Shown one piece after another: positions 10,997-35,417 of a DNA stretch of 64,000 nt. The stretch is from Patescibacteria group bacterium (GTDB lineage: Bacteria > Patescibacteriota > Patescibacteriia > SBBC01 > CAIJZX01). Each line of letters starts with the position of its first letter. The first letter of the stretch is position 1. Made by a program: the position numbers and the translations under genes. The stretch spans positions 26,466-90,465 of the forward strand of contig JBBTRH010000005.1 of NCBI GenBank assembly GCA_038065275.1. Reading direction: 5' to 3'. The notes under the pieces were generated by a model. That model saw nothing but the letters and a program-made list of their open reading frames with translations, did not search any database and was not told the origin of the DNA.

Positions 10997-10997
10997 A

Positions 10998-15241: not shown

Positions 15242-15781
15242 CTACTTCTTCCCCTGCGCCCGTTCGATAAGTTTGTAGAACACCTCCCGGGTGGTAATCA
15301 CGTCGACCAAGGCGCGGTGGGCGCTTGGCTGGGGCACCTTGAGGTAGGCCGCGACGTTCGACAGTTTGTAGCTGGCCAGGATCAGGTAGCGCTTGGCGAT
15401 TTCTACGGTGTCAATATACTGGTTCGTCAGCGCCGGCCGGCCGAGCCGTTTCAAGTGTTCGTTGATGAACCCCAGGTCAAAGGCGACATTATGGCCGACT
15501 ATGACCGATGGGCCGATGAAGCTGACGAGCTCGGGCACGACTGCATCGGGATCTTTACCTTCAGCGTTGAGCAGGTCTTGAGTGATGCCGTGCTTGGCGT
15601 GGAAATCAGCCACGTCGGTTGGCAATGGTTTAGCCGGTTTAACCAGGCTGACGAACTCCCCGACCACGTCGCGGCCGTGGATTTTCTGGGCGGCGATTTC
15701 GATCACGTCGTGGCCGGCGGCCGGGTCGAGGCCGGTAGTTTCTACGTCGAGGACGACGAAATTGAGGGGGGTAGGTGACAT
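15242..15781 (-). CDS. DnaQ-like DEDDh 3'-5' exonuclease (Pol III epsilon family)
   Basis: VVLDVETTGLDP exo I motif, HNVAFD exo II, C-terminal YxxxH. Confidence 0.8.
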   Translation of the reverse strand: MSPTPLNFVVLDVETTGLDPAAGHDVIEIAAQKIHGRDVVGEFVSLVKPAKPLPTDVADFHAKHGITQDLLNAEGKDPDAVVPELVSFIGPSVIVGHNVAFDLGFINEHLKRLGRPALTNQYIDTVEIAKRYLILASYKLSNVAAYLKVPQPSAHRALVDVITTREVFYKLIERAQGKK

Positions 15782-15914
15782 CCCCGTTAGAAATGAAGGA
15801 AGCTAGTCAAAGCCTCACGGTTTCCTAAGCTAATTCGCTGGAGAAGATTAGTCATTGGATTGATTATCTATAGCCACAATTACCTGCTCTTCGTCAGATT
15901 CATTTCTAACGGGG
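15782..15914. mobile_element. MITE-like element copy A (TIR CCCCGTTAGAAATGAA / TTCATTTCTAACGGGG; TSD CAT)
   Basis: 16-bp perfect terminal inverted repeat; flanking CAT duplicated at 15779-81 and 15915-17. Confidence 0.7.
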
Positions 15915-16101
15915 CATCGAGTCGAATTATATAGAATTATCATCGTCGGTTCAAGCCCCGATGTTCCGCGAAAGCGGGAATTTGGACCCGACCCGACGTA
16001 TTTAGGAGGTGTCGGGGCTGTGGACGGGCGGTGTGGACGGTGTGGGTGTAAGTCGGCGTTGCGGCTATCGCCGCCACCTTGTACAATAACCTTAACTATG
16101 T

Positions 16102-16270
16102 CCCGTTAGAGGTTACCGTTCTATCTAGAAATAATTCTCAATGAACCGCCAGGACAAAATTTTGCGCCGTCTTCCGGCCTCAAAAGCCCGCGAGTGGCAT
16201 CAAGAGCTAACCATAGATAAGTCTTTTATTGGGCACCTGGAACCGGATAATTTGTGTAACCTCTAACGGG
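16102..16270. mobile_element. MITE-like element copy B (TIR CCCGTTAGAGGTTAC)
   Basis: 15-bp TIR; right terminus directly abuts dnaB ATG at 16271. Confidence 0.65.
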
Positions 16271-17644
16271 ATGGCCACCCCTGCTTCGACCGACATCCGC
16301 ATCCCACCCCAGCAACTCGAGGCCGAACAGGCCGTCTTGGGGTCTTTGCTGATCGACCGCGACGCGGTCATCCGCATCGCCGACACGCTGGTGCCGGAAG
16401 ACTTCTACGCCGACAAACACCGCTACGTCTTTGACGCGATGCTGACCCTCTACCAGCGGCACGACCCGATTGACATTGTGGCGCTGTCGAACCTCCTGCA
16501 GGAGCGCCTCCGTCTCGACGTCATCGGCGGACGCAGTTTTCTCGTCTCGCTCTCGAACGCCGTCCCGACGGCGGCTAACGTCGTCCAGTACGCCGCCATC
16601 GTCCAGAAAAAGGCCACCCTCCGTCGGCTGATCGACGTGGCCGGCACCATGCTGCAAAGCGGCTACCAGGAAACGGAGGACGTTTCGGCCCTGCTCGACA
16701 AAGCCGAGCAATCGCTGTTCAACGTCTCCCAGCGCTATCTCCGCCAGAATTTCATCAACATCCGCGACGTCCTCGACGAAGCCTTTGACCGGATCGACCA
16801 GCTCCACCACGAATCCGGCCAGCTCCGCGGCGTGGCGACCGGTTTCACCCGCCTCGACTCCCTTCTCGGCGGGCTCCAGAAGTCCGACTTGATCATTCTG
16901 GCCGCCCGGCCGTCGGTCGGCAAAACCTCGCTGGCCCTCGATATCGCCCGGAACGTGGCGGTCAAGTCGAAACTGCCGGTCGGCCTCTTCTCACTCGAAA
17001 TGTCGAAGGAACAGCTGGTTGACCGTTTACTCGTCGCGCAGGCTGACGTTGATCTTTGGAAGATGCGCACCGGCCGGTTGAAAGACGACGAAGACTTCCA
17101 GCGCATCGGCCACGCCATGGGCGTCTTGGCCGAAGCGCCGATTTTCATCGACGACAGCGCCAGCGCCAACATCATGGAAATCCGCACCAAGGCTCGCCGG
17201 CTCCAGTCCGAACATAAGACCCTCGGCCTGATCGTCATCGACTATTTGCAACTGATGGAAAGCCGGACTGGCGAAAACCGCACGCAAGAAGTTTCGGAAA
17301 TCACGCGCGGCCTCAAATCAATCGCCCGCGAGTTGAACGTGCCGGTGCTGGCGCTGTCCCAGCTGTCCCGCGCCGTTGAACTCGAACGGCCGCCGATCCC
17401 GAAACTCGCCCACTTGCGCGAATCCGGTTCAATCGAGCAGGATTCCGACGTGGTGATCTTCATCTACCGCCCGGCGGTTTACGATCACGACCTGCAAGAC
17501 GACAAGAAGAACCTGGCCGAAATCCATATCGCCAAACACCGCAACGGCCCGACCGGCCGCGTTAACCTGTCCTTCGTCGAACGCCGCGCCAGTTTCGACA
17601 ATCGTGATGAGCGGATGGGTGAACCGGAGTTTCAGGGGGAGTAA
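16271..17644 (+). CDS. dnaB: replicative DNA helicase
   Basis: ORF 16229..17644 trimmed to MATPAS; Walker A ARPSVGKTS, RecA-like C-domain, N-terminal DnaB domain. Confidence 0.9.
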   Translation: MATPASTDIRIPPQQLEAEQAVLGSLLIDRDAVIRIADTLVPEDFYADKHRYVFDAMLTLYQRHDPIDIVALSNLLQERLRLDVIGGRSFLVSLSNAVPTAANVVQYAAIVQKKATLRRLIDVAGTMLQSGYQETEDVSALLDKAEQSLFNVSQRYLRQNFINIRDVLDEAFDRIDQLHHESGQLRGVATGFTRLDSLLGGLQKSDLIILAARPSVGKTSLALDIARNVAVKSKLPVGLFSLEMSKEQLVDRLLVAQADVDLWKMRTGRLKDDEDFQRIGHAMGVLAEAPIFIDDSASANIMEIRTKARRLQSEHKTLGLIVIDYLQLMESRTGENRTQEVSEITRGLKSIARELNVPVLALSQLSRAVELERPPIPKLAHLRESGSIEQDSDVVIFIYRPAVYDHDLQDDKKNLAEIHIAKHRNGPTGRVNLSFVERRASFDNRDERMGEPEFQGE

Positions 17645-17657
17645 CCTCCCCCTCGTT

Positions 17658-17681
17658 CCCCCTCCTTAATTAAGGAGGGGG
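17658..17681. repeat. anti-SD/SD hairpin CCCCCTCCTT-AATT-AAGGAGGGGG
   Basis: perfect 10-bp stem, immediately after dnaB stop; no U-tract. Confidence 0.6.
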
Positions 17682-17741
17682 ATGTCCGCAGGACAGGGGG
17701 AAGTGATTGCCCCCTCCAGCGTTTTTTGATACACTACCCCC

Positions 17742-18041
17742 ATGTTCAACAAGCTCAAACAATTCAAAGACCTCCGTCACCAGGCCAAGGAAATGCAACA
17801 TACCCTGGCCCAGGAAACGGTCTACGCCGATAGCGCCCGCGGCAAGGTGCAGGTCGTGATGGACGGCAATCAGCACGTCAACGGCCTGACCATCGACCCG
17901 GAGTTACTTAAGCCGGAGCGCAAAACCGAAACGGAGAGGGCCGTCCAGGACGCCTTCAACGACGCGGTCAAGAAGTCGCAGATGGCGATGGCCAAGAAGG
18001 CTCGTGAGATGGGCCACCTCAACCTACCGGGATTGTCTTAA
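17742..18041 (+). CDS. ybaB: YbaB/EbfC nucleoid-associated protein
   Basis: 99 aa, MFNKLKQFKDL... family signature; classic ybaB-recR pairing. Confidence 0.8.
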   Translation: MFNKLKQFKDLRHQAKEMQHTLAQETVYADSARGKVQVVMDGNQHVNGLTIDPELLKPERKTETERAVQDAFNDAVKKSQMAMAKKAREMGHLNLPGLS

Positions 18042-18139
18042 CCCCGTTAGAAGTTTTCTTGATTGCCCTTGTAGCTGGTTTAACAATCATGCTCGTATGC
18101 GCATAAGGCGGTCGTTTATAGACAATAACTTCTAACGGA
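18042..18139. mobile_element. MITE-like element copy C (TIR CCCCGTTAGAAGTT)
   Basis: fills the whole ybaB stop to recR GTG interval. Confidence 0.6.
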
Positions 18140-18739
18140 GTGGCGACCTACCCGCCAGCGATTGCCCGTCTGCTTGATGCATTGACGACGCTCCCCGGCG
18201 TCGGCCCGAAAACCGCCGAGCGGTATGTGTTTTCGCTCTTGCGACAATCGCCGCAACGCTTGCATGAGCTTTCGCAAGCGGTTGAACACCTGCGCGATCG
18301 GATCGTACTCTGTTCGCGTTGTCATACTTTCGACGAGCAGAATCCCTGCCGTTACTGCGCCGACCAGAACCGCGATCAGTCGATTATTTGCGTCGTGACT
18401 GACTCCCCTGATGTCTTAGCGATCGAACACACCGGCGCCTACAAGGGCCAGTACCACGTTCTCGGCGGAACGGTCAGTGCTATGGAAGGCCGCGGGCCGG
18501 ACCAGCTCTTTATCCGCGATCTGGTCGTCCGCATTCCGAAAGAAAACGTAACTGAGGTCATCCTCGGGATGAATCCAGACATCGAGGGCGAGACGACGAC
18601 GCTGTATCTGAAAAAAGCGCTCGAGGGACTACCAGTAAAAATTACCCAGCTGGCTCGGGGCATACCGCAGGGCGGGGATGTAACCTACCTGGATGAAGCT
18701 ACTCTATCCGAAGCCATAAATCACCGACAAACGGCCTAA
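18140..18739 (+). CDS. recR: recombination protein RecR
   Basis: HhH LPGVGPKTAER, C4 zinc finger CSRCHTFDEQNPCRYC, Toprim domain; GTG start. Confidence 0.9.
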   Translation: MATYPPAIARLLDALTTLPGVGPKTAERYVFSLLRQSPQRLHELSQAVEHLRDRIVLCSRCHTFDEQNPCRYCADQNRDQSIICVVTDSPDVLAIEHTGAYKGQYHVLGGTVSAMEGRGPDQLFIRDLVVRIPKENVTEVILGMNPDIEGETTTLYLKKALEGLPVKITQLARGIPQGGDVTYLDEATLSEAINHRQTA

Positions 18740-18774
18740 GACGACGGGGCCGGTCGGCAATTGGCGTGGTTTTT

Positions 18775-18984
18775 TTACTCAAAGTCGTTTTCGTTCAACT
18801 GTGCTTGCCTGATGATAGATCGAAAAGTGCCGAACGGGACTTCTTTACGATTCATTGGAACAATGACGGTCAATGTCGTCGGACTGGCGCGCCGAAACTT
18901 GGCGTGACTTCCTTTTTGAGCTACAAAAAAACCGTGCTGTCGGAGCACATGGGTTATCTGCTTTGAGGAATACCGTTTAGGCAT
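18775..18984 (-). CDS. hicA: HicA-family mRNA interferase toxin
   Basis: 69 aa; QKGSHAKF and VPMNRKEVPFGTFRSIIRQAQL match HicA/YcfA. Confidence 0.75.
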   Translation of the reverse strand: MPKRYSSKQITHVLRQHGFFVAQKGSHAKFRRASPTTLTVIVPMNRKEVPFGTFRSIIRQAQLNENDFE

Positions 18985-19192
18985 AGGCGAGAGAGCGAAC
19001 GATTTCCGCTCTCTCTACCTGAGCCACCGGCGGACGCTTCGCGTCCTCGAAGTAGAGTTCTAAGGCTTCGTTAAGATTTCGTAAGGCCGACCGTCTTGTC
19101 CGTCCAAAGCTGGATACGTCAACGTTAAGACATTGAGCTACGTAGTGCTTGCCCTCTTTCCAGACGACGTTTTGGAGACGCAAAGGCTTCAT
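18977..19192 (-). CDS. hicB: HicB-family antitoxin
   Basis: 71 aa; overlaps hicA start by 8 nt; UPF0150-like N-terminal fold (YVAQCLNVD...ALRNLNEALELYFED). Confidence 0.6.
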   Translation of the reverse strand: MKPLRLQNVVWKEGKHYVAQCLNVDVSSFGRTRRSALRNLNEALELYFEDAKRPPVAQVERAEIVRSLAYA

Positions 19193-19359
19193 AGTTTCTG
19201 TACAATATCAAACCACTTGCCGCTTGTCAAATGACAATTTTTACCGGTTGCGACGTTACTTATATGGACATCGTCACGCTGTTCGAAGCAGAAAGCTATC
19301 GGCAGGCAGTGCAACCGCCGCACCTCAACCTGGTGGTCAGGAAACCGGCGCGGTGTTTG

Positions 19360-20034
19360 TTACTTCGTGAAGGTGAGGGTGGAGAGGATTGCTTTCGAGC
19401 GCGTTTGAGCAGAGGGGTGCCAAAGCAGGTATTTATTACCTCCGTACTCGACGATGTAGTATGTATGTTCTTCATTGAGGACGTAACCTCCGTCGCCGAT
19501 GTAATCCTTGAATGAACCGGTTACGGTGAGCGAGTACGCAACCTGCCCAGCTACTGTCGTTTCTGTCAGATCACCGACTTCCTTGTTCGGAATATTCGGA
19601 TTTTTATCGTTTTTATTGCCCTCCCAAACCTTCGTAGCGAAATCCTTGAGTGAGAGCTTCAGCGCGGCATCGTTCGGATTGCTGTACCGAGGATTAGCCG
19701 CTTCGACACTAAACAACGCGCTCTGCCTTACGTTGTTAACGAGAGAGCCGGGTACTCCGACGCTCGAGGCGACCGATGCCTGCTTCCCGTACTCGTTACC
19801 ATACACATCACTATCGACATCGTTCGGGTACTTGAAGGTGTAGCCGTAGGCAGTGTTGGTGAACGTCTTCCACCCGGCAGTGGGGCCGGAGACATGAAAC
19901 GTTGACAGCATCTGGGTGAACGTTTCGGTGTATCCATCAAGGGCGCTCGCTAACTCCCAAACATGACCGCTAATGTTGACATAAACCGTATCGTGGAGAA
20001 ATGTCCCTCGTCCGCTGAGCGTCGGATCGGTCAA
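19360..20034 (-). CDS. hypothetical protein (possibly C-terminal half of a frameshifted secreted protein)
   Basis: starts with TTG overlapping the stop of 20031..20600 in +1 frame; no RBS. Confidence 0.4.
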   Translation of the reverse strand: MTDPTLSGRGTFLHDTVYVNISGHVWELASALDGYTETFTQMLSTFHVSGPTAGWKTFTNTAYGYTFKYPNDVDSDVYGNEYGKQASVASSVGVPGSLVNNVRQSALFSVEAANPRYSNPNDAALKLSLKDFATKVWEGNKNDKNPNIPNKEVGDLTETTVAGQVAYSLTVTGSFKDYIGDGGYVLNEEHTYYIVEYGGNKYLLWHPSAQTRSKAILSTLTFTK

Positions 20035-20600
20035 AACTGTGCCGACAACTCGGTAACCCGTTGTCCATCAACGATGATAGTCGTCGTCTTTGCGTCAGAG
20101 AAATTTTTCGCCTGAGCCTGGGCATATGCGAGGGGCGTGGCTGAAGGTCTGGGGATGATGCTAATCGCCTGCAATCCGGCGTCACATTCAATTGTGGATG
20201 GAGCCAGATATATGGTTGGATCATTTTCTCCGCAAACCTTTGTCTTCGTCTGCCACGCCGGTGGGTACTTCAAGCTGAAGCTAAGCGTTCCGTCAACGTA
20301 CATCTTCCAATCCTTCGTCGCATCGTTGGTAGTGTTCGTGTTTGTAGCCACATTCGTATTTCCATTTGCCATCGGACAAGCGGCAAACCCACACTTCGGC
20401 GGAACACGTCCGACCGACGATCCGTCCGGGCAGACTTTTGCGTCCATGATGCACGCCACTTCATTCGTGTCGGCGGTATTGCTGTTCGTGACCGTCTTCT
20501 TCGGCGCGGTAATCGCTAAGTTCAAGACCAACAAAAACGCCGCCACGGACATGACCGCGACGACGACTGGGATCAGGATGTTGCCTTGGCGCATGTGCAA
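20031..20600 (-). CDS. signal-anchored secreted protein, N-terminal half
   Basis: N-terminal TM anchor, Cys and Asn/Thr-rich. Confidence 0.45.
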   Translation of the reverse strand: MHMRQGNILIPVVVAVMSVAAFLLVLNLAITAPKKTVTNSNTADTNEVACIMDAKVCPDGSSVGRVPPKCGFAACPMANGNTNVATNTNTTNDATKDWKMYVDGTLSFSLKYPPAWQTKTKVCGENDPTIYLAPSTIECDAGLQAISIIPRPSATPLAYAQAQAKNFSDAKTTTIIVDGQRVTELSAQF

Positions 20601-20652
20601 AAAGTTATCCGAAAGTGGCCGGACCGTTCGTAAAAAAATCTTCCGCCGTTAA

Positions 20653-20790
20653 ATTGCGAAGTTCAGAACGAGCAAGAACGCGGCGATCGCCAAGAACGCT
20701 ACCACGACCGGGATCAAGTAATTGTGCTCGGCCTTTTTCCCTTGTGGCGCGGGTGCGATTGGTTGAGCAACCACTGGTTTATTCATGTCC
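20653..20790 (-). CDS. small membrane-anchor ORF (45 aa), paralogous to N-terminus of 20031..20600
   Basis: MNKPVVAQPIAPAPQGKKAEHNYLIPVVVAFLAIAAFLLVLNFAI; below ORF-track size cutoff. Confidence 0.3.
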
Positions 20791-20970
20791 TCCATACGTT
20801 TTTGTGTAAGTTGTTCGTGTGAATAAGTATAGCAAAAAACAGACGTTAATGGTAGTAGCTATCGGCTGGTTCTCATCGGGCAAAACTGCTTTTTTTACGT
20901 ACCAGCGGGTTTAAACCCGCTGGTACGCCCACAAAATAATTAACGTCTATCACGTGCTGACCGAGCCGTC

Positions 20971-21279
20971 TTACGCCGAGATCTTGGTGATCTTGACGGT
21001 CGTCACCTGTTGACGGTGGCCGAATTTGCGGTGGTAACGGACTTTATTGTGGAACTTCACGCCGATCACCTTGTCCGTCCGTTCTTGGGTCAGTACCGTG
21101 CCTTCCACCTTGGCGCCATTGACCGTCGGATTGCCCAGTGTCGCCTCGGTGTCGCCAACGAGCAACACATCGTCGAACACTACCGGCTGGCCGGCTTCGA
21201 TCGCAAGTTTCTCAATGGTGATGGTTTGCTCCGGAGCGACCAGATATTGCTTGCCGCCGGTGCGGATGACTGCGTGCAT
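20971..21279 (-). CDS. rplU: ribosomal protein L21
   Basis: MHAVIRTGGKQYLV N-terminus. Confidence 0.9.
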   Translation of the reverse strand: MHAVIRTGGKQYLVAPEQTITIEKLAIEAGQPVVFDDVLLVGDTEATLGNPTVNGAKVEGTVLTQERTDKVIGVKFHNKVRYHRKFGHRQQVTTVKITKISA

Positions 21280-21316
21280 AGGGAATAGGAAATTGTGCCC
21301 GGGCAGTATAGCGGGG

Positions 21317-21817
21317 TTATTCTGTCATGTCAACTCTGGCCTCATCCCCAACGCGCAGGCCGTGCCGGCTGGCAAAGCCGGCCGCGACCTCCAGCACCCT
21401 ATCGACGGGAACGATCGGTTCGATAATCGGCATGTTGGTCGACGACGGGTCGATCGGCGGCGATACATCGCTGGTCAGGTCGACGATCCGGCCGCTATTC
21501 AGCCAGACGAAATCGAGCGGGATAATCATGCCCTTCATCCAGAACGAGGGGCGTTGGGGCGGGTCGAAGATCCACAACATGCCTTCGACGTCGGTCAGCT
21601 GCGTCCGGCCGGCCAAACCTAGTTCCTGCAAGGCGGTTGTCGTCGGCACCAGGGCGTGAACGCTCGCATCGGAAAAGACCACCGTGGCCCGGCCGTACCC
21701 GTTGGCATCAACGGCTAGCCGCCCGGAGGCGGCCATCTGTTTTTCCACCGGCCAGAATAAGGCCACCACGAACAGGTAGAACGACCCGGCCACGGCGATA
21801 AACCAGCCGGTTTTCAT
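21317..21817 (-). CDS. DUF192-family protein
   Basis: GMLWIFDPP...MKGMIIPLDFVWLNSGRIV conserved DUF192 blocks; N-terminal TM. Confidence 0.55.
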   Translation of the reverse strand: MKTGWFIAVAGSFYLFVVALFWPVEKQMAASGRLAVDANGYGRATVVFSDASVHALVPTTTALQELGLAGRTQLTDVEGMLWIFDPPQRPSFWMKGMIIPLDFVWLNSGRIVDLTSDVSPPIDPSSTNMPIIEPIVPVDRVLEVAAGFASRHGLRVGDEARVDMTE

Positions 21818-22920
21818 TGGCTGATGGAGTCAGGACGGCGCCGCGAACTGCGGTGCATGACCCACCACACCAGCAGGGCCATGACCACCAACAACCCGCC
21901 GAGCACCTCAAGTTTCTGCACGCCCCGGACGTAGAGCGTGCTCAAACCAAACAGCGCTACCAGCAGGTAGATGAGCAGTACGCTTTGCCGCGTGGACAGG
22001 CCGGCGTCGAGCAAGCGGAAGTGGAGGTGGAGGCGGTCGGCGCTAGCGAACGGCGACTTACCCGCCCGTAGCCGCTGGACAATCACCCACAGCAGGTCGA
22101 GGATCGGTAAGCCGAGGATGAGCAGGGCGGTCGCGATCTTGCCGCCGGATATAATCGACAGGACGCCGAGCAGGAAACCGATGTATAGCGACCCGCTTTC
22201 CCCCAGAAACACCTTGGCCGGATGCCAGTTCCAAATCAGGAACCCGGTTGACGCGCCGGTCAGGCTTAAGGCCAGTAATCCGACTCCGGTTTGGCTGACC
22301 TCCGGACGCAACGTCAAGAGAAAAATAATCAGCGATCCGATTACCCCCAGGCCGCTGACCAGTCCGTCGAGTCCATCGAGAATCTTGGTGGTATAGGTCG
22401 CCCCCATCAGCCACAGGAAAGTGAACAAGTCGGCCCACAGCGTCAGGTGGTAAGGCTCGCCGCGCCAGGTAAAGAGCGTCAATCGCACTCCGGTCAAGTC
22501 GAGGAAGCCGCCGAACGGATTGGTGATGAATTGCACGCCGATCCCGGTCGCGATGGCCACCCCCGCCGCCATGACCACCCACCCTATTTGTCGTTTGGCC
22601 GGCAGTCTGAACCGGTCATCAAGCGCCCCGCCGATCGCGATCAACGCTCCGGCGGCGGTCAAACCGACCAGGTACTTGACCGGCAGTTCGCCGCTGATGA
22701 GCGCGCCCATCTTCGACAGCACGAACCAGGTGATCCACGTGGCGGCGATGATCGCCAGCCCGCCGAGTAACGGCACCGGGCGACGGTGGAGCTTCCGATC
22801 CGGCGCTTGGGCCGGATCATCAACGACTGACCAGCGGCGGGCCACGGCCATGACCACCGGCGTTATTCCGCCGGCCGCCGCCAGGCTCACGCTAAGCGCG
22901 ATGATTTGCGCCGTGGTCAT
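21814..22920 (-). CDS. polyprenyl-phosphate HexNAc-1-phosphate transferase (MraY/WecA family, GT4)
   Basis: DDRF..K and KILDGLDGLVSG motifs, ~10 TM. Confidence 0.7.
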   Translation of the reverse strand: MTTAQIIALSVSLAAAGGITPVVMAVARRWSVVDDPAQAPDRKLHRRPVPLLGGLAIIAATWITWFVLSKMGALISGELPVKYLVGLTAAGALIAIGGALDDRFRLPAKRQIGWVVMAAGVAIATGIGVQFITNPFGGFLDLTGVRLTLFTWRGEPYHLTLWADLFTFLWLMGATYTTKILDGLDGLVSGLGVIGSLIIFLLTLRPEVSQTGVGLLALSLTGASTGFLIWNWHPAKVFLGESGSLYIGFLLGVLSIISGGKIATALLILGLPILDLLWVIVQRLRAGKSPFASADRLHLHFRLLDAGLSTRQSVLLIYLLVALFGLSTLYVRGVQKLEVLGGLLVVMALLVWWVMHRSSRRRPDSISQ

Positions 22921-23324: not shown

Positions 23325-23325
23325 C

Positions 23326-24719: not shown

Positions 24720-24831
24720 GTAAACGAAGTATACACTAGTTAGCGACTCATTAGCCAGTTAGTGCGTGAGTTAACTAGCTCGTTAGCTAACGAGCTAATG
24801 AGCTAATGAGCTAAATACTAAACCGCTAATC

Positions 24832-26109: not shown

Positions 26110-26123
26110 GGGCGTCGATGAAG

Positions 26124-27252: not shown

Positions 27253-27262
27253 AGAAGAACTG

Positions 27263-27610: not shown

Positions 27611-27614
27611 ATGG

Positions 27615-28166
27615 CTATTTGGCGCCGGCGGCTTTCACCACCTTGCCGGCTTTGCGGCGGATAACTTCATCAAGATACTTGATCCCCTTGCCTTTATAGG
27701 GTTCGGGTTTTTTTAACCGGCGGATGGTAGCGGCCGTCTCGCCGACCAGTTGTTTATCGATGCCGCCGATGGTGGCCACGTTCTTTTCAACCGTGATAGT
27801 GATGCCGGCGGGAATGGGAAAGTTGACGGGATGGGAAAAACCGAGGTTTAGGATCAGGTTTTGACCGCTCACTTGGGCCTTGAAACCGACGCCGTTAATT
27901 TCCAACTGTTTCTGGTAGCCGGCGGTCACTCCGGTGATCATGTTGGCGACCAGCATCCGCGTCAAGCCCCACAGCGCGCGGTCGGACTGCGCCTCGGCGT
28001 CCACCACGCTAACCGTCAGCTGTCGCTCGGTCAGGTGCAATGACACCCGCCGGTGGACGGTCATGGTCAGCGTGCCTTTCGGACCGGTAACGTTGACCGT
28101 CTGGCCGTCGACGTTGACTGTCACACCGTCCGGAACGAGAATTGGGAGTTTACCGATGCGCGACAT
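27615..28166 (-). CDS. rplF: ribosomal protein L6
   Basis: [10 protein letters not shown]-terminus. Confidence 0.9.
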
Positions 28167-28169
28167 AGA

Positions 28170-28553
28170 TTACGAGATTTCACAAATCACTTCTCCGCCG
28201 AGTCTGGCTTTCCGCGCTTCATCGCTGGTCATCAACCCCTGCGGGGTAGAAATAATGGCCGTGCCGAAGTTGTTCATGACGTGCGGCAACTGGTGGCGAT
28301 TGACGTAGACGCGGCGGCCGGGTTTACTGATGCGTTTCAGGGCGCCGATCACCGGCTGATTCTGGTCGTACTTCAATAACAGCTTCAATTTCGTGTTCTG
28401 CTCCAGGGCGGCCAATCCGATAATCCAGCCCTCTCGTTCGAGCACCTTGGCCAGGGCGTACTTCAACTTGGCGTATGGCAGGATGACCTCGTGCTGGCCG
28501 GCCAGCTGGGCGTTGCGGATTCGGGTCAGCATGTCAGCAATGGGATCGTTCAT
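28170..28553 (-). CDS. rpsH: ribosomal protein S8
   Basis: MNDPIADMLTRIRNA. Confidence 0.9.
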   Translation of the reverse strand: MNDPIADMLTRIRNAQLAGQHEVILPYAKLKYALAKVLEREGWIIGLAALEQNTKLKLLLKYDQNQPVIGALKRISKPGRRVYVNRHQLPHVMNNFGTAIISTPQGLMTSDEARKARLGGEVICEIS

Positions 28554-28675
28554 ACCCAGCTCCACAATAGCGAATACATCATATCGGAATTCATGTGCAG
28601 TTGAGAAAGAAAAATATCCATGGCGTGGCGATTAAGCTTCTCACTATTGTGGGGCTGGGTCATAAGCGGATAATC

Positions 28676-28861
28676 TTACCACGAGGCTTTGTGGACGCCG
28701 GGCACGTCGCCCTTGTTCGCCAGTTCGCGGAAACAAATACGGCAGAGTTCGAAATCGCGCAAATAGCCGCGTTTGCGCCCGCAACGCCAGCATCGGCGGA
28801 CCAGGCGGGTCGAGTACTTGGGCTTTTTCTTAGACTTGGCAATTTGGGCGGCGGTGGCCAT
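28676..28861 (-). CDS. rpsZ: ribosomal protein S14 (Zn-ribbon type Z)
   Basis: 61 aa, CxxC...CxxC. Confidence 0.9.
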
Positions 28862-28865
28862 AAGG

Positions 28866-29411
28866 TTAGGGGCGGCGGAAAGGGAAACCGAGGTGGTGAA
28901 GCAAGGCTTGGGCCATCTGACGATGGTTGGTCGACGTGACGATGGTCACTTCCAGGCCATGGAGATGTTCGACCTCATCGCTCCGGATCTCCGGGAAGAC
29001 GATGTGTTCTTTGATGCCGACGGTGATCGTCCCGCCCTGGCCCATGGCTTGGGGATCAAGGCCGTGAAAGTCGCGGATGCGGGCCAGGGTGACATTAATG
29101 AACTTGTCGAGGAATTCCCACATCCGCTGGCCGCGCAGGGTGACCGTCGCGCCGATGACCATGCCTTGGCGGACTTTGAAGGCCGCCACCGACTTCTTGG
29201 CTTTAGTCTGGACCGGTTTCTGACCGCTCACCCGTTCCAGCGTCTGGAGCACGGTGGCGGCGTGCTTGGGATCTTTCAAGTGCTTGCCGAAACCGGCGTT
29301 GATGACGATCTTGGAGACCGTCGGCACGGCTAAAGCATTCGTCAGACCGAACTGCTGTTGGAGGGCCGGGATGACCGTGTGACGATAGCGCTGATGAAGA
29401 CGGGAGATCAT
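28866..29411 (-). CDS. rplE: ribosomal protein L5
   Basis: family match. Confidence 0.9.
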
Positions 29412-29412
29412 A

Positions 29413-29730
29413 TTACGACAGAGGTTCTTTCGAGCGGACCGCGGTCCGGACCTTTCGACCGCCGACCATGACCGCGCCGACGCGGGTCGGGTGGCCGGAC
29501 TTCGGGTCGATCAGCATGACGTTCGACAGGTGGATCGGGCCGTTGAACTGGACCCGTTGCCCGGCTTCCTTCTGGCGCCGAGCCCGAACGTTCTTAGTCA
29601 TCTGGTTCACGCCTTCAACCACCACCCGTTGCTGTTGGGGAAAGACCTGCAGGACCTTACCCTTCTTCCCTTTGTCCTTGCCGCTGAGGACCAGGACTTG
29701 GTCGCCGGTTTTTATCCGTGAGGTGGGCAT
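29413..29730 (-). CDS. rplX: ribosomal protein L24
   Basis: KOW motif GDQVLVLSGKDKGKKGKV. Confidence 0.9.
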   Translation of the reverse strand: MPTSRIKTGDQVLVLSGKDKGKKGKVLQVFPQQQRVVVEGVNQMTKNVRARRQKEAGQRVQFNGPIHLSNVMLIDPKSGHPTRVGAVMVGGRKVRTAVRSKEPLS

Positions 29731-29733
29731 AAG

Positions 29734-30105
29734 TTAGAGCACTTCGGGGGCCAGTGAGATAATCTTGGTGAACCCTTTGGTTTTGAGTTCACGGGCGATA
29801 GGGCCGAAAATACGCGTGCCGCGCGGTTCTTTCGTTTCAGGGTCAATGATCACGCCGGCGTTCTCGCTGAACCGGATGTAGCTCCCATCGGAGCGGCGGT
29901 ACTCTTTCCGCTGACGAACGATGACCAAATGCACGACATCGCCTTTCTTAACCAGGCCGTGCGGGGTCGCTTCTTTGACCGAGCCGGTGACAATATCGCC
30001 GAGTTGGCCGTACCGTTTCCGGTGCCCGCCCCAGACCCGGAAGACGGCGACGCGCCGGGCCCCGGTGTTGTCGGCCGGTTTGATGATGGTGCGGAGTTGA
30101 ATCAT
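29734..30105 (-). CDS. rplN: ribosomal protein L14
   Basis: [18 protein letters not shown]. Confidence 0.9.
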
Positions 30106-30211
30106 GCCCCGCACCACAACAGTTGATCAGGCGTCACCGAGGGTGAAGTATGCGGATGAAAATGATATGCGGATATTTGGTACATCATAGTCTGGCGGTT
30201 GTGGTACGGGG
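30106..30211. repeat. X-family palindromic spacer X1 (rpsQ stop to rplN start)
   Basis: termini CCGCACCACAACAGTTG / CGGTTGTGGTACGG; fills the entire intergenic interval. Confidence 0.55.
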
Positions 30212-30457
30212 TCATACTTTTTTCACTACTCGCCAGCGTTTAGTAGCCGACAGCGGACGGGTTTCTTCAATCACCACCCGGTCCCCGAGGTGGTACTGGC
30301 GCTGTTCGTCATGGGCGGGAAACCGTTGGCTGACGGTAAATTGCTTGTGGTACTTCGGGTGACTGACGGTCCGATCGACGCGGACAACAACCGTCTTCGT
30401 CATCTTGTCGGAGACGACGATCCCAATCAGTTGACGTCGTTTAGCGGTCGTGGGCAT
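30212..30457 (-). CDS. rpsQ: ribosomal protein S17
   Basis: start trimmed to MPTTAKRR. Confidence 0.85.
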   Translation of the reverse strand: MPTTAKRRQLIGIVVSDKMTKTVVVRVDRTVSHPKYHKQFTVSQRFPAHDEQRQYHLGDRVVIEETRPLSATKRWRVVKKV

Positions 30458-30461
30458 GGGT

Positions 30462-30665
30462 TTAGGTGGTCGGTGGTGAGGCGGTCCGAGTCTGAAGTTT
30501 AGTGAGCACCCGGGCAATATCGCGCTTCAACTCGCGCAACTCGCGGACGTCTTGGTGCTGTCCCAGCGCAACTTTGAACCGGCGATCGCGGAGCAGTTCG
30601 CGTTTCTCCTGCAGTAGGCGCTGGAGCTCGGTCGGCGATTTCTGCTCGAGTTCGGACCAGTCCAT
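30462..30665 (-). CDS. rpmC: ribosomal protein L29
   Basis: start trimmed to MDWSELEQKS. Confidence 0.8.
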   Translation of the reverse strand: MDWSELEQKSPTELQRLLQEKRELLRDRRFKVALGQHQDVRELRELKRDIARVLTKLQTRTASPPTT

Positions 30666-30669
30666 GGAG

Positions 30670-31080
30670 TTAGCTGGCGCGCTTAATAAATCTGCTGGTG
30701 ACCGGTAATTTGTAGGCGGCCAGTCGCATCGCCTGTCGAGCAACATCTTCCTTGACGCCGTCCATTTCGAACATGATCGTGCCCGGTTTGACGATGGCCA
30801 CGTAGTGATCGACGGCGCCCTTCCCGCCGCCCATCCGAATTTCGTTGCCTTTAACGGTGACCGGTTTGTCGGGAAAGATGCGAATCCAGATTTTCCCGCC
30901 CCGTTGGACGAAGCGGGTGATGGCTCGACGGGCGGCTTCGATTTGGCGGGCCGTGACCCAGCGCGGTTCGAGCGCCTTCAGTCCGAAAGCGCCGAAACTC
31001 AATTCGAGTTTGTCGGTGGCCCGACCGTGAATCCGTCCGCGGTGCCACTTTCGGTGTTTGACTTTTTTTGGCATCATCAT
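30670..31080 (-). CDS. rplP: ribosomal protein L16
   Basis: family match. Confidence 0.9.
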
Positions 31081-31083
31081 AGG

Positions 31084-31752
31084 TTAGGCGGAGCGTGAAG
31101 CGGCGGGTGAATCCTGGGCGAAAATTTCACCGCTATAAATCCAGACTTTAATGCCGATTTTCCCGTAAGTGGTGTGGGCCTCGCCGCGACCGTAGTCGAT
31201 ACCGGCCCGGAGCGTCTGCAACGGCAGGCTACCCTGACCCAGCACTTCGGTGCGAGCGATTTCCGCGCCGTTCAACCGTCCGGCCAGGGCGACCTTGACG
31301 CCTTTGGCCCCGGCTTGGAGCACCTGTTCAATGGTATTCTTCATTACCCGCCGGAAGGGTAACCGTTTCTCGATTTGTTCGGCGATGTTGCCGACTACGA
31401 TTTGGGCGGATAGTTCCGGTTGCTCGACCTCCTGGACGTTGAGCTTGACGTTGTACTTGCCGTGGCCCATGTGCAAGCGGCGGATGGCTTGACGGAGGGA
31501 CTCGATGCCTTGTCCGCCGCGGCCGATCACCACGCCGGGCTTGGAAGTGTGAATAGTAACCGTCAGATTCTGAAGCGACCGTTCGATATCAATCCGCGCC
31601 AGGCCGGCGTTCGGCAACTTGCCGATCAAGTACTTCCGGATTTGGACGTCTTGTTTCAGCAGGGCCGGGTAATTACGCGGGCTGAACCATTTCGAATTAT
31701 AGGTGGCGGTGACACCGAGGCGAAAGCTCTTGGGATGGACTTTTTGACCCAT
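31084..31752 (-). CDS. rpsC: ribosomal protein S3
   Basis: start trimmed to MGQKVHPKSFRLG. Confidence 0.9.
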   Translation of the reverse strand: MGQKVHPKSFRLGVTATYNSKWFSPRNYPALLKQDVQIRKYLIGKLPNAGLARIDIERSLQNLTVTIHTSKPGVVIGRGGQGIESLRQAIRRLHMGHGKYNVKLNVQEVEQPELSAQIVVGNIAEQIEKRLPFRRVMKNTIEQVLQAGAKGVKVALAGRLNGAEIARTEVLGQGSLPLQTLRAGIDYGRGEAHTTYGKIGIKVWIYSGEIFAQDSPAASRSA

Positions 31753-31756
31753 AGGA

Positions 31757-32287
31757 TTAGGATGTGCCTTGACGGCGAATGGACGGATCTTCGGCCCCCC
31801 TGGCCTGCGGCTTGGCGGTTGGTGATTTAGATGGTGGCTTGAAGGCGGCTTGGCCGGGGACAATCGGCGCTTTCACCGGCGCCTGTTTGACCGGGCCTTT
31901 GGTCGCCGTCACGGCCGCCGGCTTGGTGGGCGCGGCTTTGAGCGGCGCCGTTTTAGCCAGGTCTTCCAGCACCACGGTGACATGGGTCATCCGCTTGAGG
32001 ATTTCAGCCGCTCGGCCGAAGGCACGAGGCCGATACCGTTTCAGCCGCGGGCCTTCGTTGGCGACGATTGATTTGATGCGGAGTGATTTCCGTTCAAGTT
32101 TGAAATTGTGCTCGGCGTTAGCCACGGCCGAATTCAACAGCTTCAGCACCGGCCGGGACGCCCGCTTCGGCAGGACGGTCAGCTGGTCGACGGCTTGGTC
32201 GATCGGCAACCCGCGCACCAGGTTGACCACCAGTCGAACCTTGCGCGGAGATATGTGGAGATAGCGGAGATGGGCGCGGACTTCCAT
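31757..32287 (-). CDS. rplV: ribosomal protein L22 with ~60-aa Ala/Pro/Lys-rich C-terminal extension
   Basis: MEVRAHLRYLHISPRKVRLV. Confidence 0.85.
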   Translation of the reverse strand: MEVRAHLRYLHISPRKVRLVVNLVRGLPIDQAVDQLTVLPKRASRPVLKLLNSAVANAEHNFKLERKSLRIKSIVANEGPRLKRYRPRAFGRAAEILKRMTHVTVVLEDLAKTAPLKAAPTKPAAVTATKGPVKQAPVKAPIVPGQAAFKPPSKSPTAKPQARGAEDPSIRRQGTS

Positions 32288-32400
32288 ATCCAGTACTACA
32301 ACAATGAGTAAATAATAGACTGAAAAAACATATGGCTGTCTGCACGAATAATTGCGCGGCGTGTGTTCAGATAATGCATTGTTGTAGTACCGGGCATAGG
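32288..32400. repeat. X-family palindromic spacer X2 (rpsS stop to rplV start)
   Basis: termini CAGTACTACAACAATG / CATTGTTGTAGTACCGG. Confidence 0.55.
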
Positions 32401-32736
32401 TTATTTCTTGTCTGGAGTCGGCGCGGCGGCTGGAGCGGTAGCGGGCTTTTCTTGGGCCGCCATTTCCAGCTCTTTCTGCATCCGACCGCCGTGACGGACG
32501 AACTTGCGGGTCGGGGAAAACTCGCCCAGCCGATGACCGACCATGTTCTCGACGATGAAGACGGAGATATGGTTCTTTCCATTATGGACGCCGAAGGTGA
32601 ATCCGACCATCGTCGGCGTGATGAGCGAATCTCGCGACCAGGTTTTCAACACCGTCTTGTCGCCGACTTTCAGCTTGGCTACTTTAGCCAGGAGCTTCGG
32701 ATCGGTGAAGGGAGCTTTTTTTAGAGATCGTCCCAT
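32401..32736 (-). CDS. rpsS: ribosomal protein S19 with C-terminal extension
   Basis: family match. Confidence 0.9.
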
Positions 32737-32740
32737 AGCG

Positions 32741-33577
32741 TTACGGGCGGCGACGGCTAATGATTAGGCGACTAGAGTATTTTTTCTTGTTACGGGTGCG
32801 GACGCCGAGGGCATGGCGGCCCCACGGTGTTTTCGGGTATTTCATGCCGATCGGTTGGTTGCCTTCGCCGCCGCCGTGCGGGTGGTCGACCGGGTTCATG
32901 GCCTTGCCGCGGACCGCTGGCCGCCGGTTCCGCCACCGCATCCGGCCGGCTTTTCCCCAGCGGATGTTGCCGTGATCGACGTTCGAGACCTGGCCGATTG
33001 AGGCCATCGCTTCTTTTAAAACTTTACGAATTTCACCGGAGGGCATCTTCAACAGCGCGTACTCTCCTTCAATAGACATGATGGTGGCCGCGTTGCCGGC
33101 CGATCGAACGATGGCGCCGCCGCGACCCGGCCTCAGCTCGATATTGTGGATCGGCACACCGGCAGGGATGTGAGCGAGCTTGGTCCGGTTTCCAAGGCCG
33201 ACATCTACGCCCGACGGCGAGCTGACCACTTGCTGTCCGACCCGCAAGCCGCTGGGGGCAAGAATGTAGCGCTTTTCATGGTCGGCATACTCAACCAGGG
33301 CGACATGGGCAGAACGGTTCGGGTCGTACTGGATGCCGAGGACGGTCGCCGATTGACCGTGACGCTCCTGGTGAAAGTCGACCTGGCGATACAATCGCTT
33401 GTTCCCGGCACCGCGATGACGGACGGTGATTTTCCCTTGGACATTGCGGCCGGCATCCTGCTTGATGGTCGACAGCAACAACTTGTGTGGACGCTGGACG
33501 CCGCGCAGTTCGGCGTAGTCGTTGACCGAGGACTTGCGGCGGCCGGGACTGGTGGGTCGGTAGATGCGGACAGCCAT
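32741..33577 (-). CDS. rplB: ribosomal protein L2
   Basis: family match. Confidence 0.9.
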
Positions 33578-33581
33578 CGGG

Positions 33582-34070
33582 TTAGGCGCTCACGACGTCA
33601 ATGGTTTTTCCCGGCGGCAGGGTGACAATCGCCTTCTTGCGGTCGGCGGTCCGGCCGTAAGTGCGGCCGAAGCGGACTACCTTACCGCGCAGTACCATGA
33701 TGTTCACCGCGACCGGCGCGATGCCGTAGAGATGACGGACCGACTGGCGGACGTCGGCCTTGGTAGCCGCCAGAGCAACTTCGAACGTATACTGCGAGCC
33801 GGAGCCGCCGCGGGTTGATTTTTCGGTTACCAAGGGACGCTGGAGGACACGGTGGGCCAGATGAGCGGTCGATGAGGATGGCTGAGTAGTCGCCGAGGTA
33901 GTTTTCTCCGGTTTTCCCCGGGCCGGCGGCGTCTCGTTCTTACCCGCCGGGACGGCGGCGAAGGCTTTCCGTTCGGCCTCTTTTCCCGTGGCTGGTTTGA
34001 GTACGCCGCGCTTCGGGCCAGTGGTCTGGTCCTTGCCTTTTGTGCTCTTGAAGCGGTCGAAAAAGCCCAT
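33582..34070 (-). CDS. rplW: ribosomal protein L23 with ~65-aa low-complexity N-terminal extension (start uncertain)
   Basis: C-terminal core VLQRPLVTEKST. Confidence 0.75.
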   Translation of the reverse strand: MGFFDRFKSTKGKDQTTGPKRGVLKPATGKEAERKAFAAVPAGKNETPPARGKPEKTTSATTQPSSSTAHLAHRVLQRPLVTEKSTRGGSGSQYTFEVALAATKADVRQSVRHLYGIAPVAVNIMVLRGKVVRFGRTYGRTADRKKAIVTLPPGKTIDVVSA

Positions 34071-34075
34071 GAGAA

Positions 34076-34702
34076 TTATTTAACGTAGGTGGAACGGATG
34101 ACGTCCAGCGCCGGCTGGAGGACCAGGAGCTGGCCGGCGTTCACCACATCATAGGTATTCAAACTGTCCGCGCGGATGAAGGATACTCCGGGAATGTTGC
34201 GACCGGCCTTGACCAGCATCAAGTTCGTAGTCGGCAGGATGACCAGGGTCTTCGGCTGGCTCGGGACGCTCTTCAGGACCTGGGCGAATTCTTTGGTCTT
34301 CGGGGCCGGCCACGCCAGCTGATCGACGACGGTCAGCCGGTCGCTGATGGCTTTATCGCTCAGCGACATTAGCAACGCCTTTCGCTTGGCCGTCAGGTTC
34401 ATCTTCAGCGCGAAATTGCGGTTCTTCCGCGGGCCGAAGATGACGCCGCCACCCTTCCACTGCGGCGACCGGATCGAGCCTTGACGGGCGCGGCCGGTGC
34501 CCTTCTGGCGCCACGGTTTCTTCCCCCCGCCGCGGACTTCGCCGCGGGTTTTAGTGTGGGCGATAGCCTGGCGCCGATTAGCCAGGTGGGTGGTAATGGC
34601 TTGTTCGATCAAGCCGGCCTGGGGTTTAACGCCAAAAACGCGTTGGTCAAGTTCGATCTCGCCGATGACCTGGCCGGTTTGGTTGTACAACTTGACTTTC
34701 AT
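34076..34702 (-). CDS. rplD: ribosomal protein L4
   Basis: family match. Confidence 0.9.
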   Translation of the reverse strand: MKVKLYNQTGQVIGEIELDQRVFGVKPQAGLIEQAITTHLANRRQAIAHTKTRGEVRGGGKKPWRQKGTGRARQGSIRSPQWKGGGVIFGPRKNRNFALKMNLTAKRKALLMSLSDKAISDRLTVVDQLAWPAPKTKEFAQVLKSVPSQPKTLVILPTTNLMLVKAGRNIPGVSFIRADSLNTYDVVNAGQLLVLQPALDVIRSTYVK

Positions 34703-34703
34703 A

Positions 34704-35309
34704 TTATCCCTTTATTACCACCAGGCCGTTCCGCGGTCCGGGCACGGCGCCGGAGAGCCACAGTTCATTCGCTTCCGGCTTGACGGCCATGACCGTCAGG
34801 TGCTTGACGGTAACTTTAGCGTTACCCAACCGACCGGCCATTCGGGTGCCCTTCATGACGTGTTGGGGGAAGGTCGCGCCGATCGAACCGGGCGCGCGGA
34901 GGTTGTCTTTGTGGCCATGGCTAGCGGGACCGCCTCTGAAGTGATGGCGCTTGACCACGCCGGCAAACCCCCGACCCTTGGAGGTGGCGGTGACTTGAAC
35001 ATGATCGCCAAGTTGAAACACCGCCACGTCAATCTTGGCGCCGCGGGCCAGTGTGGCGCCAGTCACGGTGGCCTGGCGCGAATAGCGGAAATTCCCCAAA
35101 CCCTTTTGCTGGCCGCGTTGCGGTTTCGCGACGCGCGATTCCTTGGTCGGCACCCCGGCGATGTGGACCGTCGCTGACCCGGCCAGGCCGACGGGCCGGA
35201 CGTCAGTCACGACGTTCGGTTCAGCCTTGATGACGGTCACCGGCACGACCGTCCCGTCGTCCTGGAAGACCTGGGTCATCTGCATTTTTTGTCCAAGCAG
35301 GAACTTCAT
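34704..35309 (-). CDS. rplC: ribosomal protein L3
   Basis: family match. Confidence 0.9.
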   Translation of the reverse strand: MKFLLGQKMQMTQVFQDDGTVVPVTVIKAEPNVVTDVRPVGLAGSATVHIAGVPTKESRVAKPQRGQQKGLGNFRYSRQATVTGATLARGAKIDVAVFQLGDHVQVTATSKGRGFAGVVKRHHFRGGPASHGHKDNLRAPGSIGATFPQHVMKGTRMAGRLGNAKVTVKHLTVMAVKPEANELWLSGAVPGPRNGLVVIKG

Positions 35310-35417
35310 CCCGTTAGTCCCGTTAGAAATGAATGAAAGTAAACCATCGGTACATATGAGATTGTAATTGCTACTAATGCTTTTTCCGAAAATACGGTGA
35401 TCGTCATTTCTAACGGG
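35310..35417. mobile_element. MITE-like element copy D (TIR CCCGTTAGAAATGA; extra half-TIR CCCGTTAG at 35310-35317)
   Basis: sits between rpsJ and rplC; terminus directly abuts rplC ATG. Confidence 0.6.

Follow-up and report, generated by a model that had tools for sequence, protein, structure and literature searches.

The DNA considered here, 64,000 nucleotides of contig JBBTRH010000005.1 from a Patescibacteria group bacterium (GenBank assembly GCA_038065275.1), is referred to as a whole as the window, and all coordinates of elements are window positions. Among its approximately 65 genes are dnaB, recR, rplC for ribosomal protein L3 and a gene for a DnaQ-like exonuclease, and the start codon of each of these four genes is directly adjoined by the end of a foldback hairpin. 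The hairpins belong to a family of short palindromic elements carried by many bacterial species, and are described below as probable insertions of a MITE-like sequence (MITE, for miniature inverted-repeat transposable element) that is kept at start codons.

The 8-mer TCTAACGG or its complement is found at 17 sites in the window, where 1.75 are expected. Sixteen of these sites, together with a degenerate left end in one copy (copy G), make up eight full hairpin elements of 97-171 bp, lettered A to H. Their termini read (Y)CCCGTTAGA…TCTAACGGG(R) and enclose interiors that are mutually unrelated in sequence. The perfect arms are 12-16 bp long, and the inner bases of the stem vary between copies yet stay complementary (AAATGA/TCATTT, GGTTAC/GTAACC and AAGTGG/CCACTT). 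Folded as RNA, all eight copies form a long terminal stem, with energies of -29 to -57 kcal/mol and z-scores of -2.4 to -5.9.

Zero spacing between a terminus and a start codon, as reported in a preliminary description of this DNA, is found at the dnaQ-like gene, dnaB, recR and rplC. Copies E, F, G and H have no adjoining start codon; copy E lies 143 nt upstream of tuf, and copy G lies 78 nt upstream of a minus-strand gene with a GAGGAGG Shine-Dalgarno sequence. In 64 kb with about 65 genes, chance cannot account for exact contact at four of the sixteen ends of elements. The junction at rplC is composite, in that copy D is nested within an older copy's terminus, which on the minus strand is ...GACTTCTAA[D]CGGG. 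The rplC ATG is directly preceded by …CTAACGGGACTAACGGG, and the part that touches it is the older terminus rather than copy D. The right terminus of copy C is degenerate, and reads ...CTAACGGA directly before the recR GTG.

The start codons of the four genes are correct, as judged by the alignment check that the preliminary description had named, since the N-termini match solved structures. The alignment of L3 to solved L3 proteins begins at residue 1-2, residue 1 of RecR is aligned with the native Met of 3vdp, residue 10 of DnaB with residue 8 of 2r6a, and residue 7-8 of the DnaQ-like protein with residue 10-13 of its homologues. The further claim that the leaders of these genes consist entirely of the element has to be given up, because a second copy of the start codon is retained, together with the native promoter, upstream of the element. 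For instance, the left ATG of copy A has TATAAT at a distance of 8 nt on its upstream side, and the left ATG of copy B has TACAAT at 10 nt. Coordinates of the copies, of the genes that they adjoin and of the small open reading frames (ORFs) within them are collected in Table 1.

Table 1. Hairpin elements of the window, the genes at their ends and the ORFs inside them (fold energy in kcal/mol).
Feature	Position	Strand	Termini or stem	Flanking duplication or junction	Fold
Copy A	15782-15914		CCCCGTTAGAAATGAA...TTCATTTCTAACGGGG; 16-bp perfect stem	3-bp duplication CAT, 15779-15781 (minus-strand start codon of the dnaQ-like gene) and 15915-15917	-47.2, z -3.8
DEDDh (DnaQ-like) exonuclease gene	15242-15781	minus		start codon adjoins copy A	
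Copy B	16101-16271		TCCCGTTAGAGGTTAC...GTAACCTCTAACGGGA	...TCTAACGGG ends at 16270, and the dnaB ATG begins with the terminal A at 16271; residual ATG on the left side, 16098-16100	-56.6, z -3.7
41-codon ORF in copy B	16141-16266	plus		ends at terminus TAA, 4 nt before dnaB ATG	
dnaB	16271-17644	plus		start codon adjoins copy B	
Copy C	18042-18139			fills the ybaB-recR spacer exactly, from the TAA stop of ybaB (18039-18041) to the recR GTG at 18140	
recR (GTG start)	18140-18739	plus		adjoins copy C	
Second-family hairpin	32289-32394	minus	CC-CGGTACTACAACAATG...CATTGTTGTAGTACTG-GA	unrelated sequence, same architecture	
rplC	34704-35309	minus		start codon adjoins older terminus and copy D	
Split terminus of older copy	35310-35317, continuing 35419-35427	minus		adjoins rplC ATG (35309-35307)	
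33-codon ORF in copy D	35306-35407	minus		ATG in inner stem to TGA overlapping the rplC ATG (ATGA)	
Copy D	35318-35418		TCCCGTTAGAAATGA...TCATTTCTAACGGGA	TTAG duplication, 35314-35317 and 35419-35422	
Copy E	37327-37427			TTAG duplication; 6-bp flanks GTTAGC identical on both sides	z -5.9
Copy F	60953-61054		15-bp perfect stem	GAA duplication	
Copy G	62161-62261		variant left terminus CCCCGTTAAAAG		
Copy H	62618-62716			TCAA duplication, 62614-62617 and 62717-62720	

Besides the full copies, solitary half-termini are found in the window at 38916 and 45708. The latter (…CCGTTAGAA, minus strand) is 24 nt upstream of the start of gene 45257-45685.

One genome per species was scanned for CCCGTTAGA-N70-100-TCTAACGGG, which gave at least 120 loci. 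The element is present in at least 120 species, mostly of the Patescibacteria/Candidate Phyla Radiation (CPR; Saccharibacteria, Paceibacterota, Kaiserbacteria and others), with additional carriers in the Omnitrophota, Planctomycetota, Desulfobacterota, Nitrospirota and Elusimicrobiota. Phages are no obvious carrier, given 10 matches in 2.9 million viral contigs. In the 144 copies compared, the ends (A)Y-CCCGTTAGA-NNN and NNN-TCTAACGGG-R(T) pair into a 14-bp stem. The three pairs that lie inward of the nine-pair core used in the search are Watson-Crick in 91-94% of copies, with at least four pair types at each position, and covary; pairing then falls abruptly at an asymmetric internal loop. On the outer side, the Y:R pair that flanks the core is complementary in 137 copies (C:G in 70, T:A in 65), and the next pair outward is A:T in 94. 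The interior is variable, AT-rich and from 3 to about 150 nt long, and the copies, 55-184 bp in size, contain no transposase gene. The same stem is also seen in mini-hairpins of 24-53 nt, and the constant part of the element is therefore the stem and not the interior.

No known RNA family accounts for these hairpins. Only two tRNAs reach the Rfam 15 gathering score in the window, and at relaxed thresholds nothing overlaps the elements (E-value up to 5), with no match at four other loci either. A literature search by sequence and by keyword found no published description of the element, which is apparently undescribed.

More complex arrangements of the same stem were also seen. In locus L017 (metagenome-assembled genome DX4.bin27), a 92-nt copy stands mid-arm in each arm of an inverted duplication of about 325 bp (2046-2369 and 4832-5155). 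The arms enclose a 2.5-kb segment that encodes a 686-aa secreted protein and that, being bounded by inverted arms, may be invertible; the repeat plus its flanks recurs in L011 and L096. Composite arrangements are found in L207 (2496-2585), L073 (3725-3814) and L215 (3736-3827), and comprise pairs of same-stem mini-hairpins with a short structured spacer and ACTTG/CAAGT flanks, and hairpins nested in each other.

The element is flanked by a 4-bp direct repeat that is perfect in 87 of the 144 copies and varies in sequence, with TGAA (38), TAAA (14), TGGA (8), TGAG (8) and TCAA (5) the most common among the clean cases. This repeat is a target-site duplication with the consensus T-N-N-A. Seven copies have ATG..C on the upstream side and a rebuilt GTG on the downstream side, which assigns the terminal purine to the element. 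A rebuilt start codon, ATG or GTG, is composed of that purine and the duplicated TG. The earlier suggestion that a duplication regenerates the start codon is thereby supported, and is refined to a duplication of 4 bp (TGNA) plus the last base of the element. Insertion is also favored by the nesting of copy D, with its TTAG duplication, in an older terminus. The 80 rplC loci of other metagenomes that are closest to that of the window (at most 61% identity) lack the element.

Conservation across phyla that is limited to the stem, around an interior of 3 to about 150 nt, could also be the mark of folded single-stranded DNA that is recognised by a structure-specific enzyme rather than by a DDE transposase. 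The enzyme might be a HUH enzyme like that of REP (repetitive extragenic palindromic) sequences and their REP-associated tyrosine transposase (RAYT), or an integrase that acts on attC-like hairpins. The three covarying stem pairs, the asymmetric internal loop (CGC opposite T) that marks one strand and the absence of a transposase nearby agree with this proposal, as does the core GTTAGR/YCTAAC, which attC core sites resemble. Against it, the variable but matching 4-bp repeats of 60% of the copies point to a staggered cut and are not left by HUH or tyrosine enzymes, the core motifs follow each other in the opposite order to those of attC, the GTAG signature of REP sequences is lacking, and no integrase or RAYT gene was seen beside any copy; the proposal is accordingly considered a doubtful one. 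A guide of the IS200/IS605 type that sets the flanking repeat was rejected, since the same duplication occurs with many different inner-stem triplets.

The compensatory changes that keep the stem intact from the CPR to the Planctomycetota may alternatively mean that the 14-bp stem is a functional module in itself and more than a site for transposase binding, an idea that is just as doubtful. The module could be the substrate of a so far unrecognised mobilisation system that is specific to hairpins and shared across phyla, or an RNA device for shunting or hopping of ribosomes to the gene. In the RNA version, the duplicated and the real start codons would stand side by side at the foot of the helix, such that a ribosome loaded on an AUG upstream or at the 5' terminus could cross the folded element. 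Bacteria would then have a counterpart, at the level of initiation, to ribosome shunting or to the bypassing in T4 gene 60.

The preference for start codons extends to copies from many species. An ATG, GTG or TTG that opens at least 60-80 codons is located exactly at the end of the element in 63-65 of the 144 copies (45%), as compared to 1-1.7% of random positions and 6% of RTNNAY sites, in line with the enrichment at zero distance that the preliminary description had proposed to look for. No copy has a gene adjoining both ends. In nine of nine randomly sampled abutting ORFs, a Pfam domain begins at the N-terminus (PGK, ClpP, L23, YqeY and an S4-domain protein are among them). Copies at start codons account for 48 of 84 in the CPR (57%) versus 7 of 39 in other phyla (18%; p = 4e-5). 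In non-CPR hosts, an enrichment just upstream of Shine-Dalgarno sequences was looked for, and distances of 1-25 nt were not above the random control, which is itself imperfect. On the far side of the element, a TANNNT box lies 5-9 nt upstream of the upstream start-codon copy in 19 of 52 cases, against a background of 8%, which is a leaderless arrangement, and in 13 cases the TGA of the upstream gene overlaps that start-codon copy.

A preference of this kind could arise from targeting alone, if the transposition machinery were drawn to the sequence of start codons (RTGAA) or to open or bent DNA at leaderless promoters, with no role for the element in translation. The open upstream frames and the orientation bias described below would then be side effects of a few successful subfamilies. 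The clean duplications favor this explanation, given that TGAA, TGGA and TGAG make up 54 of 87 and that 46 of those 54 are at start codons. One third of the upstream start copies are at leaderless-type promoters, and the duplication of a second hairpin family, considered below, likewise contains an ATG. However, many other duplications (TAAA, TCAA, TAGA and TTAG) are found away from start codons, and phyla that use Shine-Dalgarno sequences have only 18% of copies at start codons. The open-frame excess is specific to strand and frame in loci from different species, and a symmetric terminus with a near-palindromic TNNA target is insufficient on its own for an orientation bias of 28:3. Targeting as the whole explanation is therefore judged unlikely, while having more in its favor than a hairpin-specific enzyme.

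The orientation of the element relative to the gene is not random. In a large subfamily, the continuation of the stem is asymmetric (CGC opposite U, or else a U preceded by a local 3' hairpin), and 28 copies have the arm motif YCTRYYTCTAACGGG on the side of the gene, as compared to 3 with the motif on the far side (p = 5e-6). An internal promoter was rejected as the cause of this bias, as -10-like hexamers are as common antisense as sense (62 versus 53). An outward promoter in the terminus was rejected by inspection, as TCTAAC occupies -9..-4 from the ATG and key -10 positions are missing.

The reading frame that begins at the upstream start copy is kept open through the element more often than expected. 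This frame, ATG-AAY-CCC-GTT-AGA…, avoids the TAG of the left terminus and passes through the element without a stop in 21 of 52 cases, as compared to 6, 10 and 6 for three control frames and to 7.4±2.2 for dinucleotide shuffles of the interior (maximum 15 in 1000). Fifteen of the open frames end at the TAA of the right terminus, as TC-TAA-CGGG-ATG with a 4-nt gap, and 5-6 end at an ATGA overlap. Over the 65 start-codon copies, the frame that ends at the terminus TAA has a mean of 19.5 open codons, versus 13.0±1.2 in shuffled sequences and 13.2 antisense.

The same arrangement can be followed in the window, where five hairpins are at start codons, namely copies A, B, C and D and the one of the second family. 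An ORF or open frame, 22-43 codons long, is found in each of them, and either overlaps the start of the gene or stops 4-8 nt short of it. In copy C, the frame is open across the entire element, with an internal ATG at 18097, and ends at a TAA (18133-18135) 4 nt before the recR GTG. Nearly all genes of the window lack a Shine-Dalgarno sequence (gene 61651-62082, with GAGGAGG, is an exception), and their operon junctions are typically TAA-N1-7-ATG. The terminus of the element thus imitates a native junction. Because TC-TAA-CGGG-ATG mimics such a junction and the frame leading to its TAA is kept open, the terminus probably matters as a stop codon for termination-reinitiation rather than as a ribosome-binding site.

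These observations bear on two points of the preliminary description. The absence of a canonical Shine-Dalgarno sequence before the four genes was correctly noted, but it is no special trait of these genes, given that nearly all genes of the window share it. For the same reason, the proposal that the terminus is a special, non-Shine-Dalgarno element for initiation is unnecessary as it was put, the Shine-Dalgarno sequence being lacking almost everywhere in the genome. The right terminus would in that case serve the abutting codon as a pyrimidine-rich standby site or a binding site for S1, and the gene-proximal arm is indeed pyrimidine-rich (YCU-RYY-UCUAAC) and placed preferentially beside the gene. 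Yet initiation without Shine-Dalgarno sequences takes place genome-wide in unrelated sequence contexts, the same terminus is found at the gene-distal end and at copies far from genes, and the arm is base-paired in the folded RNA, which together leave this function with very little probability.

The long and stable stems in all eight copies of the window, and the pairing of the first two bases of the start codon in the stem foot, might instead be signs of RNA processing, which the preliminary description had also put forward. A nuclease such as RNase III that cleaves the 3' side of the stem, at its foot or close to it, would yield a leaderless or short-leader mRNA that begins at the rebuilt start, as would suit a host in which many genes are of a leaderless type. 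RNase III, though, cleaves within stems and leaves staggered ends instead of cutting at the foot, no ribozyme or known RNA family matches the element, and the reading frame kept open through the element is left unexplained. Processing at the hairpin is thus improbable as the basis of the arrangement, if slightly less so than a dedicated initiation site.

The interpretation that is favored here, with somewhat more confidence than doubt, is that of a non-autonomous, MITE-like foldback element that persists at start codons by means of a coupled small upstream ORF. In short, the element lands on TG-N-A behind the first base of a start codon and duplicates 4 bp, such that its terminal purine and the duplicated TG provide a new ATG or GTG flush with the right end. 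The original start codon, along with the promoter or the upstream stop codon, is retained at the left end. In compact genomes of the CPR type, with leaderless and termination-reinitiation starts, few other spots would tolerate a 100-nt hairpin. Ribosomes would start on the upstream copy of the start codon, enter the 5' arm and melt the stem in which the first two bases of the real start are buried. In many copies, the small ORF would be read to the TAA of the right terminus or to an ATGA overlap, followed by reinitiation on the gene.

As in MITEs generally (for a general review, see PMC3184786), the element has terminal inverted repeats and a duplication of fixed length, and is small, transposase-free and present in multiple copies (eight in 64 kb). 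It also has two features of MIRUs, the interspersed repetitive units of mycobacteria, namely insertion at start codons and an internal ORF that ends at or overlaps the gene start. The sequences show the anatomy, the duplication, the rebuilding of the start codon, the enrichment at start codons, the orientation bias and the surplus of open frames; the chemistry of transposition, the translation of the small ORFs and their coupling to the gene are inferred.

Several results weigh against a MITE-like element coupled to its gene. Neither a transposase nor a longer element bounded by the same termini was found in the window and about 1 Mb of flanking sequence, by a search that covered solitary termini and their neighbouring ORFs, pairs of termini 0.5-4 kb apart and the inverted pair in L017. 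Ordinary inverted repeats that are bound by a transposase do not usually show compensatory change in both arms, which would be easier to reconcile with an enzyme that recognises hairpins, or with a function in RNA, than with a classical transposase site. No empty-site allele was found for any insertion of the window; all contigs that encode identical L3, RecR and DnaQ-like proteins carry the insertions. Copies B and C have no recognisable duplication. The upstream frame is interrupted by internal stops in 31 of 52 cases (60% closed), and in copies A and B the frame of the duplicated ATG ends after 3 codons at the TAG of the left terminus, such that coupling there would need a second internal ORF. 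Finally, the sample is biased, since loci were seeded only by perfect 9-mers spaced 70-100 nt apart, and the gene calls rest on ORF heuristics.

A second hairpin family in the window, with arms CCGGTACTACAACAATG / CATTGTTGTAGTACTGG, fills the spacer between rpsS and rplV. The start codon of rplV lies within the TATG duplication of this hairpin (32398-32395 and 32288-32285). An ORF of 33 codons extends from the upstream ATG (32397) to a TAG (32298-32296) that is 8 nt before the rplV ATG. This is the clearest case of an ORF that passes through a hairpin, from rpsS-TAA-CCT-ATG via 33 codons to TAG-N8-ATG of rplV.

Other inverted repeats of the window were noted in their own right. The start codon of ORF 14309-15238, which has no Pfam match, is the exact beginning of a 12-bp inverted repeat (ATGAACATCCCG / CGGGATGTTCAT; 14309-14499), the right arm of which resembles the end of the element followed by ATG. 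A 95-nt hairpin at 39475-39569 has 16-bp perfect arms (CCACACACCGCGGGTT / AACCCGCGGTGTGTGG). A tRNA-Pro gene (59043-59116) lies inside a perfect 19-bp inverted repeat (59031-59126) that extends its acceptor stem by 12 bp per side, and is followed by a further hairpin with 18-bp arms at 59154-59224. A tRNA-like 3' end (…GGTCGTGGGTTTAAGTCCCGCTACCCTGACCA) is found at about 60690-60735, where neither ARAGORN nor Rfam calls a tRNA or tmRNA.

Positions 5953-14063 form an island of low GC content (36-44%, as compared to about 57%) with genes for an AbiEii toxin, a PIN_8 protein and an MvaI/BcnI restriction enzyme with an N4/N6 methylase. It also encodes a large serine recombinase (12540-14030), the 3' end of which overlaps a tRNA-Lys gene (13989-14063), and it looks like a defence island integrated at the tRNA gene. 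Ribosomal protein L30 is missing between S5 and L15 in the window, which derives from a metagenome of Hainich groundwater, and the closest L3 among public metagenomes is 61% identical to that of the window, as would suit a deep lineage of CPR type.

If the favored interpretation is correct, the element is a widespread mobile element of the CPR and other uncultivated lineages that is adapted to genomes almost without non-coding DNA. It would insert at start codons, rebuild them with its own last base and keep the gene expressed through a small coupled frame. It would also provide independent, comparative evidence for leaderless and termination-reinitiation starts, rather than Shine-Dalgarno starts, in the CPR, and could be regarded as a natural and portable "bicistronic design" cassette. 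Gene calling would be affected as well, by spurious N-terminal extensions, small ORFs and GTG starts beside hairpins. The 14-bp stem is, in addition, conserved across phyla without a known partner enzyme.

Several known systems resemble the element in part. The attC sites of integrons are imperfect hairpins of 60-140 nt at gene boundaries, with terminal cores of 7-9 nt resembling GTTRRRY/RYYYAAC, a variable centre and unpaired bases that mark one strand. In the present element, the core order is reversed (GTT... first and ...AAC last), there are flanking duplications, the neighbours are housekeeping genes and no integrase is present. Identity with attC was rejected because of the reversed order, as 5'-GTTAGA ... 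TCTAAC-3' is read on either strand where 5'-RYYYAAC ... GTTRRRY-3' is required. An integron cassette array was rejected as well, given that the neighbours are dnaB, recR, rplC and tuf and that the sole recombinase of the window is the large serine recombinase of the unrelated island.

REP sequences and REPINs are likewise short conserved palindromes that occur as mini-hairpins (24-53 nt here) and longer hairpins, with structure conserved over interior sequence. However, REP sequences have a GTAG signature and no target duplication, are species-specific and flank a RAYT gene. The REP/REPIN-RAYT system was rejected, since the element has no GTAG signature, has a duplication and has no HUH gene near any copy. 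The piggyBac/IS1380 group offers a lead, in that it has a 4-bp T..A duplication and termini that begin with CCC and end with GGG. Here the target is TNNA and not TTAA, the termini are alike in only a few bases, and no transposase was found.

The Correia elements of Neisseria and the enterobacterial repetitive intergenic consensus (ERIC) sequences are bacterial MITEs that are transcribed with neighbouring genes. They are about 100-150 bp long, with inverted-repeat ends, a short duplication, many copies near genes and hairpins in the mRNA. Their termini are unrelated in sequence to those of the present element. Correia elements, which leave a duplication of TA and are noted as a source of promoters and RNase III sites, are not known to lie flush on start codons or to occur outside one genus.

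The closest likeness in position is to the MIRUs, short mobile repeats for which insertion at start codons has been reported, along with coupling of an internal ORF to the gene (Supply et al. 1997, as summarised in PMC12548453). MIRUs are direct and often tandem repeats of 46-101 bp that are known only from mycobacteria, have no terminal hairpin and are coupled to the gene by a -4 (ATGA) overlap. Identity with MIRUs by sequence or repeat type was rejected, as the present elements are palindromic, are not tandem and are found in other phyla. The element described here, in contrast, folds back into a hairpin, has a conserved stem of 14 bp, duplicates 4 bp and completes the start codon with its terminal purine. 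It would be coupled mostly via a TAA that lies 4 nt upstream, and is found in the CPR and several other phyla. If the favored interpretation holds, the principle of the MIRU would thus be extended beyond the mycobacteria and to a different class of element.

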